Assembly (NCBI RefSeq): GCF_988242995.1
Contig: NZ_OZ547043.1
Direction: 5' to 3' (one strand)
Length of the DNA stretch: 64,000 bases
The notes under the pieces were generated by a model. The model was given only the letters and a program-made list of their open reading frames with translations. It was not told the DNA's origin and searched no databases. Of this stretch, positions 9,752-57,416 are shown piece by piece. The translations under genes were made by a program, and so were the position numbers. The first letter of the stretch is position 1. Each line of letters begins with the position of its first letter.

Positions 9752-11000
9752 GGGAGTTCTACCGCAGGGGCGGGGAATTCTAAGTGATATCCATCATCGC
9801 ATCCAGTGCGTCCGGTTTATCCCCGCTGACGCGGGGAACACGCTTTTCCCCACGCGTCCAGATCTTCGACTGGCGGTTTATCCCCGCTGGCGCGGGGAAC
9901 ACTCATTAAATTGTTTTTCCCGATCCCAGCTCTGCGGTTTATCCCCGCTGGCGCGGGGAACACCTGGAGCGCAGAAAGTTTGATATCGAAAATGCCGGTT
10001 TATCCCCGCTGGCGCGGGGAACACAGTTAACAACCCGCGCCGAACAAGCCCGACAACGGTTTATCCCCGCTGGCGCGGGGAACACCAGGTTCGTAAAGGT
10101 GAACACGGCACGACGGCCGGTTTATCCCCGCTGGCGCGGGGAACACGCGTCGCCATTCTATTAGCTTTTCCTCATCACCGGTTTATCCCCGCTGGCGCGG
10201 GGAACACCCGACAATCTCCGCCTCCAGTCGGTCGACCTGCGGTTTATCCCCGCTGGCGCGGGGAACACTGTGCCCGACTGCGTGCCGCGTCGAGCGCCTG
10301 CGGTTTATCCCCGCTGGCGCGGGGAACACTTCGCCGCCATCATCCTGTGGTGCCAGTTGACCGGTTTATCCCCGCTGGCGCGGGGAACACATACCGCAGC
10401 AAATTACGGTTCCAGAAACGCGCGGTTTATCCCCGCTGGCGCGGGGAACACTGACACGTTAAACGGTGCGTTGTCGTCGCTGTCGGTTTATCCCCGCTGG
10501 CGCGGGGAACACCCTGCCGCCCCCTTTAGCCCATATGGGGGCGGCGGTTTATCCCCGCTGGCGCGGGGAACACTTCAACATTACGAAACGGGATCACGCC
10601 GCTGACGGTTTATCCCCGCTGGCGCGGGGAACACCGGCTCCGCGTCGACATAAAAGTCCTCGGGATCGGTTTATCCCCGCTGGCGCGGGGAACACATATT
10701 TCGCCCCGTCACGCTGAATCAGCCAGCCGGTTTATCCCCGCTGGCGCGGGGAACACTCGCTTTTAAAGCGCCGGAGGAAAGTAAGCTCCGGTTTATCCCC
10801 GCTGGCGCGGGGAACACTAGCATAAATTACCCGATCAGATCGCGGACATCGGTTTATCCCCGCTGGCGCGGGGAACACTCGATCAAAAATTTACAACCAA
10901 AGGCTTCAACCGGTTTATCCCCGCTGGCGCGGGGAACACTCCCCGGTATCAGAAATAATTCCCTGCTCGATCGGTTTATCCCCGCTGGCGCGGGGAACAC
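9752..11000 (-). CRISPR. CRISPR array, type I-E repeats, 21 repeats and 20 spacers
   Basis: 29 bp repeat CGGTTTATCCCCGCTGGCGCGGGGAACAC with exact 61 bp period, starts at 9813, 9874, ... 10972; all spacers 32 bp. Repeat at 9813 has one mismatch (CTGACGCG). A degenerate terminal repeat sits at 9752-9780 (about 19/29 matches). Leader is on the right, so crRNA is read on the minus strand. Confidence 0.98.
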
Positions 11001-19852: not shown

Positions 19853-20005
19853 CTACTTCTTCGATTCGTAAGCGAGAACTGCCTTAAACTCCATACCACG
19901 TTCTCTGATACTCAACTCACACAACGAGTCGCCTACCATCAGCGTGAATCCCAGTACTGTACAACACAGTACGATGATTGCCACAAGGGCATATTTTGTC
20001 AGCAT
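19853..20005 (-). CDS. Hok/Gef-family type I toxin (HokE-like), 50 aa
   Basis: Hand-translated minus-strand [53 protein letters not shown]: one TM helix then the Hok signature (SLCE...IR...AYES). GGGAGG Shine-Dalgarno 6 nt upstream. Not in the ORF track (below size cut-off); the 84 aa plus-strand ORF 19796..20050 is its antisense. Confidence 0.7.
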
Positions 20006-20270
20006 GTCTTGCCTCCCTGCAAAGAAGAGACTAACATTCGAATTGCTTAGGTTCGAACGCTGGCCTCAGGTTGATAGAAATATCGCCTGGGGCTTTTGTC
20101 CATCTGGAACCTCGCGAATGCTTAACGCCAGACAGCCTCAAGCACCCAACGCCATTCTATACTTGATAATTCTTCCAGCGGCGTTCACGTTTAAAATCAG
20201 GAATGCTGCTCGCAAAATAAAAACGCCCCCATCTTTTCAGACAGAGACGTTTATTAAGCGGTACGATATT

Positions 20271-36065: not shown

Positions 36066-36111
36066 GTGAGGAAGACCGGGCGGGAAACTGCCCGGCCTGA
36101 ACATACCTGAA

Positions 36112-36249
36112 TGGTTATCCCCGCTGGCGCGGGGAACATAAGTTCGACAACTTAAAAAATGATAACAAGTCCGGTTTATCCCCGCTGATGCAGGGAACAT
36201 AATAAAAACTTTAACTAGTTCGGTTTATCCCTGTTTTTACAAGGAATAT
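36112..36249 (-). CRISPR. Degenerate CRISPR remnant (3 decayed repeats)
   Basis: TGGTTATCCCCGCTGGCGCGGGGAACAT, CGGTTTATCCCCGCTGATGCAGGGAACAT and CGGTTTATCCCTGTTTTTACAAGGAATAT, separated by 32 bp and 20 bp. Confidence 0.75.
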
Positions 36250-36702
36250 TAACTACACTCGATGTATTTAGAATAAAAGACAATACGAATCGCACTTTAT
36301 CAATTTTCACTTAAAGTATGAACTGGATATCTTTATTCATAAGAACTATTCATCAACAGCGTATAGAGGCGATTATGTAAAACCACTCATTAGCCTCAAA
36401 ACAAAGACAAATTTCCAGATTTATTACTTAATCAATGAATAACAAGCTTAAAAAATACACTGTTATTCTAAAGAAAAAATTAACAGGCATTAATTAATAT
36501 TAAAAAAATAATATGTTAAAATTTCTTAACGGTTTAAGGATTATACAAATAACACTTTGATTAAATTTTATTTTTTGTATCGATAATTGTGAACTTGTCA
36601 TATATGGAGAGCTATTTTGAACATGAGGTGTTACGTGGATATGTTGCTTAATACGAGTACTGCTAATATAAAAACTTGAGAAAGAGATAACGGGTTATAT
36701 GG

Positions 36703-37219
36703 TGGTTTATTCCCGCTGGTGCGGGGAACTCATCAGTGATATCCAACATTGCGGAGCTAAACGCGGTTTATCCCCGCTGGCGCGGGGAACTCAATTAGCC
36801 CGCCTCGCGCGGGTTTTTTTGTGCCGGTTTATCCCCGCTGGCGCGGGGAACTCTTTACTTATCTGCAAATATTTTTTGTCAGCTGCGGTTTATCCCCGCT
36901 GGCGCGGGGAACTCACGAACGCGGCACACCAGGGCGTCTCATCGTCCGGTTTATCCCCGCTGGCGCGGGGAACTCGAACACGACAGGAGTGATAAATGTA
37001 CGCACATCGGTTTATCCCCGCTGGCGCGGGGAACTCGGCTGATAGTGCTTCTGATTATTCGGCGCAAGCGGTTTATCCCCGCTGGCGCGGGGAACTCTAG
37101 GACCCAATATAAAACCGACTGGTTATTTTCGGTTTATCCCCGCTGGCGCGGGGAACTCTTTCAGTCTGGAACACAACGGCGTTAAATAACCGGTTTATCC
37201 CCGCTGGCGCGGGGAACTC
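36703..37219 (-). CRISPR. Orphan CRISPR array, type I-E repeats, 9 repeats and 8 spacers
   Basis: Repeat CGGTTTATCCCCGCTGGCGCGGGGAACTC, period 61 bp, starts 36703 (degenerate distal repeat, 3 mismatches), 36764 ... 37191; 32 bp spacers; leader on the right; no adjacent cas genes. Confidence 0.97.
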
Positions 37220-47233: not shown

Positions 47234-49990
47234 ATGACCAACTACAGCCTGCGCGCACGCATGATGATTCTGATCCTGGCACCGACCGTCCTTATTGGTT
47301 TATTGCTGAGTATCTTTTTCGTTGTGCATCGCTATAACGATTTGCAGCGTCAACTGGAAGATGCCGGAGCCAGCATTATTGAGCCGCTTGCAGTTTCTAC
47401 TGAATATGGCATGAGCCTGCAAAATCGCGAATCTATCGGTCAGTTAATAAGCGTACTGCATCGTCGCCATTCCGATATTGTTCGCGCGATTTCGGTTTAT
47501 GATGAAAATAACCGACTCTTTGTCACCTCCAATTTTCATCTTGATCCCTCATCAATGCAGCTCGGCAGCAACGTGCCGTTTCCTCGCCAGCTCACTGTCA
47601 CTCGTGACGGCGATATTATGATCCTCCGCACACCGATTATTTCTGAGAGTTACTCCCCCGACGAATCGCCCAGTAGCGATGCCAAAAATAGTCAAAATAT
47701 GTTGGGATATATTGCGCTTGAGCTGGATCTTAAATCGGTTCGCTTGCAGCAATATAAAGAGATCTTTATTTCCAGCGTGATGATGCTGTTTTGTATCGGT
47801 ATTGCGCTTATTTTTGGCTGGCGCTTAATGCGCGATGTAACCGGTCCGATTCGCAATATGGTGAATACCGTCGACCGCATCCGTCGCGGGCAACTCGACA
47901 GCCGGGTGGAAGGATTTATGCTCGGCGAGCTGGATATGCTGAAAAACGGTATCAACTCGATGGCAATGTCGCTGGCTGCTTATCACGAAGAGATGCAGCA
48001 CAATATCGACCAGGCGACGTCCGATCTGCGTGAAACGCTGGAGCAGATGGAAATTCAGAACGTTGAGTTGGATCTGGCGAAAAAGCGTGCCCAGGAAGCG
48101 GCGCGTATTAAATCCGAGTTTCTGGCAAATATGTCACACGAGCTGCGTACACCACTGAATGGTGTTATTGGCTTTACTCGCCTGACGCTGAAAACAGAAT
48201 TAACACCAACGCAGCGCGATCACCTGAATACGATTGAACGTTCGGCAAATAATTTGCTGGCAATTATTAATGATGTTCTCGACTTCTCGAAACTGGAAGC
48301 AGGTAAGCTGATTCTGGAAAGTATTCCATTCCCACTACGCAGCACGCTGGATGAAGTCGTTACCCTGCTGGCACATTCTTCTCACGATAAAGGGCTGGAA
48401 CTGACGCTCAATATTAAGAGCGACGTGCCCGATAACGTAATTGGCGACCCACTGCGATTACAGCAAATCATCACTAACCTGGTAGGGAATGCAATTAAAT
48501 TCACCGAGAATGGCAACATTGATATTCTGGTAGAAAAACGTGCGCTGAGTAATACCAAAGTGCAGATTGAAGTGCAGATTCGGGATACCGGCATTGGTAT
48601 TCCTGAACGCGATCAATCGCGCTTATTCCAGGCCTTCCGACAGGCTGATGCCAGTATTTCCCGCCGTCATGGTGGCACCGGGCTGGGGCTGGTGATTACA
48701 CAAAAACTGGTTAATGAAATGGGCGGCGATATTTCGTTCCATAGCCAGCCGAATCGCGGTTCAACTTTCTGGTTCCACATTAATCTCGATCTGAACCCGA
48801 ACATTATTATCGAAGGGCCATCCACCCAGTGCCTAGCCGGCAAGCGCCTGGCCTATGTCGAACCAAACTCCGCAGCAGCGCAATGCACGCTGGATATTTT
48901 AAGTGAAACGCCGCTGGAAGTGGTTTATAGCCCAACGTTCTCCGCGCTGCCTCCCGCGCATTACGACATGATGTTGTTAGGCATCGCGGTGACCTTCCGC
49001 GAGCCGCTAACAATGCAACATGAGCGATTAGCGAAAGCGGTATCGATGACCGATTTTCTGATGCTGGCACTTCCTTGCCATGCACAAGTCAATGCTGAAA
49101 AACTTAAGCAAGATGGTATCGGCGCGTGTCTGCTGAAACCATTAACACCTACGCGCCTGTTACCTGCCCTGACGGAATTTTGTCATCACAAACAAAACAC
49201 GCTTTTGCCTGTAACCGATGAAAGTAAGCTGGCAATGACAGTCATGGCGGTTGATGACAACCCCGCTAACCTGAAACTTATCGGCGCATTGCTGGAAGAT
49301 ATGGTGCAACATGTGGAACTTTGCGATAGCGGGCATCAGGCGGTTGAACGGGCGAAACAAATGCCGTTCGATTTGATCTTAATGGATATTCAAATGCCGG
49401 ACATGGACGGCATTCGGGCCTGCGAGCTCATCCACCAGCTCCCCCATCAGCAACAAACGCCAGTTATCGCGGTAACGGCGCATGCAATGGCCGGGCAAAA
49501 AGAGAAGCTGCTTGGCGCAGGGATGAGCGATTATCTGGCGAAACCGATTGAAGAAGAGCGATTGCATAATTTGTTGTTGCGCTACAAGCCTGGCAGCGGT
49601 ATTTCCTCTCGCGTCGTGACGCCCGAAGTCAACGAAATTGTGGTGAACCCGAATGCGACCCTCGACTGGCAACTGGCACTACGCCAGGCAGCAGGAAAAA
49701 CCGATTTAGCGCGCGATATGCTGCAAATGTTACTCGATTTCCTGCCTGAAGTTCGCAACAAAGTTGAGGAACAGCTGGTTGGAGAAAACCCGGAAGGCCT
49801 GGTTGATTTGATTCATAAACTGCATGGCAGTTGCGGCTATAGCGGTGTGCCGCGTATGAAGAATCTCTGCCAACTGATCGAACAACAGCTACGTAGCGGT
49901 ACTAAAGAAGAAGATTTGGAGCCGGAGCTGCTGGAACTGTTAGACGAGATGGATAATGTAGCGCGCGAAGCCAGCAAAATTCTCGGGTAA
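47234..49990 (+). CDS. barA: Hybrid sensor histidine kinase BarA
   Basis: ORF track 918 aa: two TM segments, HAMP, HisKA (H-box SHELRTPLN), HATPase, receiver and HPt domains. Confidence 0.96.
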
Positions 49991-55137: not shown

Positions 55138-55920
55138 TTAGGAACTTATCTCTCCATCCTGACCCGATGGCGCACTGAACTCAACCCTTTCATTTTCAGG
55201 AAGCAGACCCCGCCAGCCAAATTGTGATAACGCCTGCATCCAGGTGTCGTCCAGGCCCGCGTGAATAGTCAGCGGCTCGCCAGTAAAAGGATGCGTCAAT
55301 GACAACTGACTGGCATGCAGCATTAACCGCTGAAGGCCAAAATGTTCAGCACCGCTGCGATTCTGGCGTAAATCACCATGTTTGCTGTCGCCAATAATCG
55401 GGTGGCGCAAATGGGCAAGATGGCGACGGAGCTGGTGCTTGCGTCCGGTTTTCGGCTCCAGTTCCACCAGGCCGTAGCGCGTGGTCGGGTAACGTCCGGT
55501 CGCTACCGGCATTTCTACGGTCGCCAGACCGCGATAATGCGTCACTGCTGGCTGTGGGCCTTTATCTTCGCGGGCAAATTTATCAGCGATTTTGTCCAGT
55601 TCTTCCACCAGTGGATAATCCAGAACTGCTTCTTCCATCAACCAGCCGCGCACAATCGCATGGTAACGTTTCTGGATTTGGTGCTGTTCAAACTGTTGTG
55701 CCAGCAGCCGTCCGGCCTCGCTGGATAATCCCATCAACAACACACCAGAAGTTGGTCGGTCCAGACGATGAGCAGTAAACACATGCTGGCCTATCTGGTC
55801 ACGCACGGTTTGCATGACCACTACTTTCTCGTCGCGATCCAGCCAGCTACGGTGAACCAGCCAGCCGGAGGGTTTATTTACCGCAACCAGCCATTCATCC
55901 TGATAGAGTATTTCCAGCAT
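55138..55920 (-). CDS. truC: tRNA pseudouridine(65) synthase
   Basis: ORF track 260 aa, RluA-family motif [12 protein letters not shown]. Confidence 0.92.
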
Positions 55921-56249
55921 TAGCTCGCATCATCCGCAAAAAGAGCATCCAGTTTTTCCAGCTCAGCCAGAATAAGCGCGCGTTGCGGGTGGTCCGTCGC
56001 CAGCGCCATTTCATAATAGGGAGCAACGGCAAAAGCGCCCGGTAACGGCTGGTTGTTTTCTAACAAATCGTGCATTCGCGGGATCAGCACCCACTGCAAC
56101 CACTCCAGTGGTTCCATGGTGTCCATAAAGAACGGTTGGGTACTATTAAATTGATGCGGCTGGGGTTCATCGTTTCGCCAGTGCTGATGTTCACGCAGTA
56201 ACGCTTCAAGCGCCTGCAACTGGAAACGAACGCGGTCATGAGTGGTCAT
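55920..56249 (-). CDS. yqcC: DUF446-family protein
   Basis: ORF track 109 aa, stop/start overlap with truC. Confidence 0.85.
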   Translation of the reverse strand: MTTHDRVRFQLQALEALLREHQHWRNDEPQPHQFNSTQPFFMDTMEPLEWLQWVLIPRMHDLLENNQPLPGAFAVAPYYEMALATDHPQRALILAELEKLDALFADDAS

Positions 56250-56292
56250 AAAGCAACCTCAATAAGAAAAACTGCCGCGAAGGATAGCAGGA

Positions 56293-56660
56293 ATAAAAAA
56301 AGGGAGCACTGTATTCACAGTGCTCCCGGTTCGTTTCGCAGCATTCCAGCTACTTTTGTTGCTCCCTGCTCATCCTTGACAACTTTTCCTCTGGCCTTGC
56401 GGCCAATCGTTCATCCTGAACTATTGCTTCCTGCTCACACCACCCCGATGTGATACTTCATCCTGAAGTGTCCCTGGCCTTCCTGACCCACCGAATCATC
56501 CTGACCGGTTCTCATTCTCCATCCTGGAGGTGTCCTTTAACGCGTCCTGCGTCATCCTCTTCGCTTCATCCAGAAGCCTTTCCCTGAAACACCATCCTGG
56601 TGTGTCCTTCAGAAGTGTCATCATCCTGATGTTCACTTCGTTGTCTGACTCCCTGTCGAC
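56293..56660 (-). ncRNA. csrB: CsrB small RNA (CsrA-sequestering)
   Basis: Minus strand carries at least 8 CAGGATG-type and about 18 GGA motifs (plus-strand CATCCTG repeats), begins GTCGACAGGGAGTCAGACAACGAAG, and ends with hairpin GGGAGCACTG / CAGTGCTCCC (56302-56327) plus U7. Length about 368 nt, matching csrB. Confidence 0.9.
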
Positions 56661-56833
56661 GAAGATAGAATCGTCTTTTTCGCGAAGTCTTACAAGGCGC
56701 TTACAGACAATGCCTTAAGGAAAATTTCATATGAAAGTTAAGGATTAACAAGCAATATATTGATTTTAAATGAAAATAACGATTCTTATCTTTTTAAGTA
56801 TTCGCTTATTTCCTGGCGATCTCCTACAGAGTC

Positions 56834-56851
56834 TGTAAGAGATCTCTCACA
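56834..56851. promoter_or_regulatory. UvrY/SirA-type 18 bp palindrome upstream of csrB
   Basis: TGTAAGAGATCTCTCACA (reverse complement TGTGAGAGATCTCTTACA), about 175 bp upstream of the csrB 5' end. Confidence 0.75.
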
Positions 56852-56870
56852 ACCAGATGGGGTATTTGGA

Positions 56871-57416
56871 TTACAGAAGAGGCTTAAGTTGATTAAGGAA
56901 TTCCGCAAGATTTGAGGCTAAATGCGCCCGTTTACGTGTTCCCAGCGTCTCTTTACACACTTCACCGGAGAGATTACACACCGAGATCACCTCTAACTCT
57001 TCTTCCAGCGTCGCGATAAATAGCGTGGGCGGCAATTTTAGCCTTTTCTGAGTCACCAGATGACCAATCAGATTTTCCTGCACCCGACGGAAGTCGTCTT
57101 CACTCCAGGTTTGCAGCAATGTCAGTTTAATATCGCCAAACTGCGCGTGCATATCCCCGGCAAACTGAGTCGTATAAAAGGTATGAATTGTGGGTTGTAT
57201 CACAATATCAAAAGCGCGTTCAACCGCGTTTACATTTTGTTCCCCGGTAAACGGCTGGGGTTGCCAGTATACGGCGTCTTCGGTGGTTGAAATAATGCAC
57301 GGTGAAGGAACGCCGTACAGTTCCTCACTCAACGGCCAGCTTTTATGCTCTTCATGCCACGCATCGCAGTAGCGTGCAGTAAAATCTTTCAGGGCTTGTG
57401 CGGTCAAATCGTCCAC
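56871..57416 (-). CDS. syd: SecY-interacting protein Syd
   Basis: ORF track 181 aa. Confidence 0.92.

Follow-up and report, generated by a model that had tools for sequence, protein, structure and literature searches.

The csrB locus of an Escherichia coli strain: a known CsrA decoy RNA, its UvrY inverted repeat and a possible promoter-side half-site

The csrB gene and its genomic context

Within the window (i.e., the whole 64,000-nucleotide stretch of contig NZ_OZ547043.1, assembly GCF_988242995.1, that was analysed here), the minus strand encodes csrB, flanked by syd upstream and yqcC downstream and accompanied, a few kilobases away, by barA (Table 1). Of these, csrB and barA, together with the UvrY site in front of csrB, belong to the textbook picture of the Csr global regulatory system; they are already known and well studied, not new, and their discovery value is small. 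The initial annotation, made from the letters of the sequence, was correct in calling them known biology rather than novel, the locus being the annotated csrB of K-12 with its published UvrY site.

A covariance scan of the 64-kb window with Rfam 15 returned two matches above the curated thresholds, namely CsrB and an unrelated sok RNA, and CsrC was not present. The CsrB match (RF00018; 56292-56651, minus strand; 382.9 bits against a gathering score of 71, E 2.2e-111) spans the model from end to end (positions 1-356 of 356), which is the outcome of the very search that had been proposed as the check on a csrB reading of this region. The boundaries of the gene were taken from its alignment to csrB of K-12 MG1655 (b4408, NC_000913.3 2924156-2924524), and they lie within 1 nt of the minus-strand RNA of about 368 nt, counted from 56293, that had been predicted beforehand. 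Both genes align base for base, with two substitutions inside the RNA: C52A (window 56609), which adjoins GGA site 3 and where the window allele is the Rfam consensus, and G340A (window 56321), in the terminator stem, which converts a G-U pair of K-12 into an A-U pair and makes the stem fully Watson-Crick. Four further SNPs with respect to K-12 are located in the upstream A+T-rich spacer (56743-56759), clustered around the IHF consensus described below; two of them fall at N positions of this consensus and a third immediately follows it, and the consensus remains intact.

The 701-bp locus is present at an identity of at least 95% in 5425 of 5426 complete E. coli genomes, and at 100% in only three chromosomes among the 5425 matching genomes. 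A single complete genome is without a match to the locus, 22 match over less than 80% of it, and in a few genomes the locus is found in two places, one of these places being a plasmid. Judging from its sequence, 56292-56660 is almost certainly the chromosomal csrB locus of an E. coli strain. Strain GN06156, which matches at 100%, shows a local collinearity with the window that breaks down in the first 47 kb: gene offsets between both amount to ~2.7 kb for the Hok/Gef gene and 60 bp for barA and, due to the offsets in those first 47 kb, the GN06156 record cannot annotate the whole window.

Regarding the immediate neighbours, the gene order queF-syd-csrB-yqcC-truC is kept across Enterobacterales loci. 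The ATG of yqcC lies 43 nt beyond the 3' end of csrB, which implies that the promoter of yqcC-truC-yqcA either overlaps csrB or needs read-through of the csrB terminator. On the other side, no terminator-like site was found between the syd stop codon (56871) and the transcription start site (TSS) of csrB (56660), so syd transcripts may read into csrB. Farther away in the window, the sok match (111.7 bits, 19990-20147) overlaps a 50-aa Hok/Gef-like ORF (19853-20005) in a chromosomal hok/sok-type toxin-antitoxin locus (19853-20147, minus strand) that adjoins cysH. Two type I-E CRISPR arrays, also on the minus strand, are situated at 9813-10998 and 36111-37217 (61-bp periodicity; 20 and 11 repeat matches, respectively), and the second one, whose terminal repeats are degenerate, is interrupted by a gap of ~500 bp (36198 to 36703); a related strain has its cas genes next to the first array, with cas1e marked there as a pseudogene.

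Table 1. Position and basis of the features at and around csrB (window coordinates)
Feature	Position	Strand	Basis or remark
csrB, ncRNA that sequesters CsrA	56292..56660	-	369 nt; Rfam match and K-12 alignment
UvrY-P site, 18-bp inverted repeat TGTGAGAGATCTCTTACA	56834..56851		Exact match to published site
Third UvrY-type half-site TGTAGGAGA (putative)	56820..56828	-	5 nt to the promoter side of the palindrome
IHF core consensus match AATCAATATATTG (WATCAANNNNTTR)	56753..56765	-	-105..-93; spacer 70% A+T
Direct TGTAAG copies (two)	56700-56705, 56689-56694	-	-45..-40, -34..-29
Weak sigma-70 core promoter (inferred)	56667..56695	-	Assigned by eye from the TSS
GGA sites 20 and 21	56363-56365, 56345-56347	-	RNA positions 296, 314
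Unstructured segment GAAACGAACC	56328..56337	-	RNA positions 324-333; identical to K-12
Intrinsic terminator	56295..56327	-	Terminator scan and inverted repeat, 100% complementary
syd (SecY-interacting protein)	56871..57416	-	NF003439 equivalog, 285.8 bits; upstream neighbour
yqcC	55920..56249	-	ORF and annotation in E. coli records; downstream neighbour
barA, tripartite sensor kinase, phosphorylates UvrY	47234..49990	+	918 aa; NCBIfam equivalog
ORF, 71 aa	56238..56453	+	ORF list
ORF, 62 aa	56530..56718	+	ORF list

CsrA-binding motifs, terminator and decay elements

The window csrB contains 22 GGA, 14 AGGA (5.0 expected), 9 GGATG (1.07 expected) and 6 CAGGATG, a motif of which 0.09 copies are expected and a maximum of 2 was reached among 2000 dinucleotide shuffles. 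In a sequence so rich in G and A, the excess of bare GGA over dinucleotide shuffles is modest (22 vs 15.3 ± 2.5, ~2.6 sd), and for this reason the extended motifs and the density along the whole window are relied on instead. In terms of density, the 22 GGA form the densest 369-nt GGA cluster in the 64-kb window, both strands considered, the minus strand having on average 5.5 GGA per 369 nt (sd 2.7). The predicted fold of csrB beats all of 100 shuffles (z = -4.3) and, in the centroid fold, 20 of the 22 GGA are unpaired (12 in hairpin loops and 8 single-stranded), one of the two paired sites being that of the terminator, site 22, located in the 5' arm of the stem. The terminator itself consists of a stem-loop (56302-56327; GGGAGCACUGU-GAAU-ACAGUGCUCCC) with an 11-bp stem, 7 GC pairs and a 4-nt loop, followed by seven U. 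Both the repeated CAGGATG/GGA motifs and the strong terminator mentioned in the initial annotation were recovered.

E. coli CsrB has been described as an RNA of 369 nt with 22 numbered sites, the last of them in the terminator (PMC5027483), and the window csrB agrees with this description in its length, in the number of sites and in the position of site 22. Its decay has been characterized as well: RNase E has a "necessary cleavage site" at A327 and A331 of CsrB (Vakulskas 2016, PMC5027483), and CsrA bound at GGA sites 20 and 21 shields CsrB from RNase E until CsrD acts (PMC5027483). By position, A327 and A331 would correspond to 56334 and 56330 of the window, respectively, and the decay elements of the window are base-for-base as in K-12. 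From its near-identity to K-12 and the published description (PMC5027483), the window csrB would be expected to bind and sequester multiple CsrA dimers.

Plus-strand reading frames and the annotation gap

The region might also be read as coding for small plus-strand proteins, with its RNA-like features being secondary, given that both plus-strand ORFs of Table 1 exist and have ATG and GTG starts. Nevertheless, neither of them has a family match in NCBIfam, the other strand fits a structured-RNA model over the full length of the model, and the curated annotation of K-12 has no CDS here. Moreover, the frames are broken in relatives (E. albertii, Citrobacter and seven further ones): in E. albertii, at 94-98% nucleotide identity, a 1-bp insertion leads to several stops in 56238-56453 and an in-frame stop interrupts 56530-56718, and stops or frameshifts are found also in Citrobacter, Klebsiella, Pluralibacter, Pectobacterium and Serratia. 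Lacking a family and with frames disrupted in this way, the coding reading was rejected, its probability being practically nil. To judge by their sequence, both ORFs are chance frames, antisense to a GGA-rich RNA gene, and the initial annotation was right in stating that the ORF track misrepresents csrB.

This has a practical side for annotation, since naive ORF callers add two spurious antisense ORFs here, and a scan should mask the RNA gene. As for existing records, E. coli RefSeq records annotated by PGAP, such as NZ_CP095529.1, have no csrB feature and leave the 620-bp gap between syd and yqcC blank, csrB being named only in the curated K-12 record. An abundant and widespread regulatory RNA is, thus, invisible in most annotations.

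Regulatory sequences upstream of csrB

The 18-bp inverted repeat TGTGAGAGATCTCTTACA is complementary in 8 of its 9 pairs and spans -191 to -174 (centre -183/-182) relative to the TSS, for which the G at 56660, the 5' end of the K-12 annotation, was taken. It is the sole match in the window, even at three mismatches (0.01 expected). The generic GacA box TGTRAGN6CTYACA, with one mismatch, likewise matches only this site in the window; nonetheless, 0.37 matches are expected, and it is the exact 18-mer that is significant, whereas the generic match is not significant alone. The same sequence, at the same position, was crosslinked to UvrY in ChIP-exo and protected in DNase I footprints (Zere 2015, PMC4682653), and the binding of UvrY in vivo depends almost wholly on its phosphorylation by BarA (PMC4682653). 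What had been reported from the letters, i.e., a near-perfect palindrome with the UvrY/SirA consensus at 56834-56851, some 175 bp upstream of csrB, holds in full, down to the exact published UvrY-P sequence and offset, the near edge being that at -174. The genes uvrY, csrA and csrD are not in the 64-kb window, and their presence is assumed from the species.

Could the palindrome be, instead of a transcription-factor site, a hairpin or terminator at the 3' end of the syd mRNA, or just a chance palindrome? It directly follows syd on the same strand, starting 19 nt past the stop codon, the terminator scan gives no other terminator-like site between syd and csrB, and the palindrome could form, as RNA, a 7-bp hairpin. 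However, it is A/T-rich and without a U tract, the terminator scan made no call there, and the exact 18-mer is hardly expected by chance in one window. The identical 18-mer also precedes CsrB-type genes in Vibrionaceae and Shewanella, with three copies in some genomes; a syd homologue is present in only 69 of the at least 120 loci with the 18-mer and, in those of Photobacterium, Enterovibrio and Shewanella that have it, syd is 2-4.6 kb from the palindrome and not adjacent. Added to these points is the published binding of UvrY-P, by both ChIP-exo and footprinting (PMC4682653). With no U tract, no terminator call and a syd gene that is often distant or absent, the role of syd terminator was rejected, and this explanation as a whole, chance included, is very improbable in comparison with that of a UvrY-P site.

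Between the UvrY-P site and the RNA, the core promoter comprises a putative -35 box TTGTAA (56690-56695), a spacer of 17 nt and a putative -10 box GATTCT (56667-56672). A consensus sigma-70 scan of 56150-56950 called no promoter, and the lack of a strong one fits dependence on an activator. Both TGTAAG copies fall within the zone of UvrY crosslinking next to the promoter (-56 to +25), where the inverted repeat is not preserved and UvrY gives no footprint in vitro (PMC4682653); since the inverted repeat is not preserved there, no function is attached to these copies. A putative IHF site has been placed between the two UvrY crosslinking zones, ihf mutants show a ~10-fold loss of CsrB, and IHF is needed for optimal UvrY binding (PMC4682653). 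The consensus match at 56753-56765 falls inside that interval and would probably be the published IHF site.

The inverted repeat in other genomes

The exact 18-mer was searched for in ~100,000 species genomes, one per species (GTDB representatives), and at least 121 copies were found at no fewer than 120 loci, distributed among Enterobacterales, Vibrionaceae, Shewanella and a few MAGs. The loci were selected by the presence of the 18-mer and many of them are orthologous, so the counts express association and not independent events: among the matches listed, 113 of 121 copies have one flank, and one only, that reaches 17 GGA or more in 700 nt, and in none of the 121 are both flanks GGA-rich. 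For the background, made up of 3954 windows drawn from these loci, the mean is 7.7 GGA and the 99th percentile 17. The eight exceptions among the matches listed include two copies that are clipped by the end of the locus and yet clearly CsrB-like, and one or two near short Rsm-like clusters; four exact copies, namely L030 (second site, 12089), L074, L076 and L085, are without a GGA-rich neighbour, and these may be non-sRNA targets or chance matches. Short Rsm-like GGA clusters are located 60-150 nt away in L031 (a Hahellaceae MAG) and L079 (a Kiloniella MAG), and L083 (Thaumasiovibrio) has two tandem CsrB genes.

At the gathering threshold, Rfam was applied to 33 of the at least 120 palindrome loci and placed CsrB beside the palindrome in 23. 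In all 23 cases the Rfam-confirmed gene lies downstream of the palindrome, with its start at 166-282 bp from the edge of the latter, and the distance is ~183 bp in Enterobacteriaceae, the same as in the window. No Rfam CsrB was obtained at this threshold in three Shewanella loci (L029, L030 and L091) and two MAGs (L090 and L103), which nonetheless have 17-42 GGA per 700 nt beside the exact palindrome, indicating that distant RNAs of the CsrB type can escape the Rfam model; the other Rfam-negative loci belong to the exceptions listed above. In other genomes, the palindrome shows a specific association with RNA genes of the Csr/Rsm type, and conservation of the exact 18-mer extends over three groups of Gammaproteobacteria.

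A third half-site

The sequence TGTAGGAGA forms, together with the right half of the repeat, a second inverted repeat, and an extra element "partially conserved" in csrB of E. coli and Salmonella has been mentioned previously (Zere 2015, PMC4682653). Its distribution was followed in the 115 loci with a GGA-rich flank, where, among the matches listed, GTRRG starts 5-6 nt past the repeat toward the promoter in 106 loci, compared with 5 loci for the far side, a pattern that holds in Enterobacterales, Vibrionaceae and Shewanella alike. With the stricter TGTRRG, again among the matches listed, the element is found in 57 of 59 loci of Enterobacterales, 21 of 47 of Vibrionaceae and 4 of 7 of Shewanella. 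The single asymmetric position of the repeat, for its part, takes both orientations with respect to the RNA (84 vs 29 among the matches listed). With a repeat that is used in either orientation and a half-site that is one-sided, polarity appears to be in the third half-site rather than in the palindrome.

Based on this pattern, the UvrY site might conceivably be a three-part element, formed by the 18-bp repeat and, 4-6 nt from it, a promoter-side half-site ((T)GTRRGAGA), although we put this forward tentatively and with more doubt than confidence. Such a half-site could direct a symmetric, distant activator site to one flank, and the recruitment of a third UvrY protomer or of a second dimer could be a possible route for it. 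A literature search retrieved no paper joining UvrY or GacA, csrB and "half-site", and the breadth and strict polarity of the half-site may be undescribed, a negative of this kind being weak evidence. If true, the three-part element would give a modest clue to the way in which a symmetric activator site, placed at a distance, gains direction.

The proximity of barA

The barA ORF matches the BarA equivalog of NCBIfam (NF008318) with 1623.9 bits, for a cut-off of 890, and the gene is named barA in syntenic E. coli records. Its end is 6.3 kb from the 3' end of csrB and 6.7 kb from its TSS, in agreement with the identity, position and separation of 6.6 kb given in the initial annotation. Is this closeness functional, e.g., because a sensor and its main target are inherited or located together? 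Seven Enterobacteriaceae loci with a long-enough flank (E. albertii, Enterobacter sp. Ag1, E. asburiae, Enterobacter sp. Cy-643, Cedecea, Kluyvera and Pluralibacter) do have a BarA orthologue (at least 67% identity) at 4-9 kb from the csrB palindrome, and Pantoea stewartii has a partial match of 48% identity 10-11 kb away. Against that idea, shared ancestry is enough to account for an order conserved among close relatives, the genes between barA and csrB (gudPXD, yqcA, truC and yqcC) are unrelated, and the kinase matches near the Vibrionaceae palindromes are 28-40% identical, which makes them paralogues. Furthermore, BarA works through a diffusible UvrY encoded elsewhere, a cis relationship being unnecessary, and for this reason the proximity is regarded as probably an inherited gene order, a functional meaning being unlikely. 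Across the loci with this neighbourhood (L010, L017, L045, L059, L082, L087, L095 and L012), the intervening genes vary.

Proposed mechanism

The mechanism that follows is known for K-12 and is carried to the window strain by identical or near-identical sequence. BarA would autophosphorylate and hand the phosphate to the response regulator UvrY, encoded outside the window, and UvrY-P would then occupy the inverted repeat centred 182-183 nt upstream of the TSS. The A+T-rich spacer would be bent by IHF, probably at the consensus match, and the bend would bring UvrY-P to the weak sigma-70 promoter, allowing transcription from 56660, with the 369-nt transcript expected to terminate at 56295-56327. 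In the resulting RNA, the 22 GGA, mostly in hairpin loops or single-stranded linkers, would bind many CsrA dimers, which would be titrated away from their mRNA targets. Turnover would begin with a cut by RNase E in the unstructured segment that immediately precedes the terminator; CsrA on GGA sites 20 and 21 would block this cleavage, and CsrD would overcome the block.

Comparison with known systems

The closest known system is csrB of K-12 MG1655, which is like that of the window in length (369 nt), neighbours (syd and yqcC), position of the inverted repeat (-183/-182), terminator and RNase E site. In Salmonella enterica, csrB is an orthologue from another genus with a diverged RNA sequence, and it has the identical 18-bp repeat, with its centre at -182/-181, as well as TGTAGGAGA and a putative IHF site (PMC4682653). 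CsrC of E. coli (RF00084) is likewise a UvrY-activated RNA decoy for CsrA but, unlike csrB, it is a shorter RNA, has a less symmetric repeat (TGTGAGACATTGCCGATA) and is IHF-independent (PMC4682653).

The same design, i.e., a GacA/UvrY box, a GGA-rich RNA and a terminator, is shared by CsrB/C/D of Vibrio, CsrB1/B2 of Shewanella and RsmY/RsmZ of Pseudomonas, whose GacA box is TGTAAGN6CTTACA (PMC3171408). Shewanella CsrB1 and CsrB2 have been published with their GacA/UvrY box (PMC3171408), and that work cites only the TGTAAGN6CTTACA box, the exact 18-mer being absent from it. The RNAs of Shewanella fall below the Rfam CsrB cut-off and those of Pseudomonas are much shorter. The exact 18-mer of E. 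coli is found in many loci of Vibrionaceae and Shewanella, whose genomes have several copies, and the distance from the box to the gene is 190-282 bp in Vibrionaceae, compared with ~183 bp in Enterobacteriaceae.
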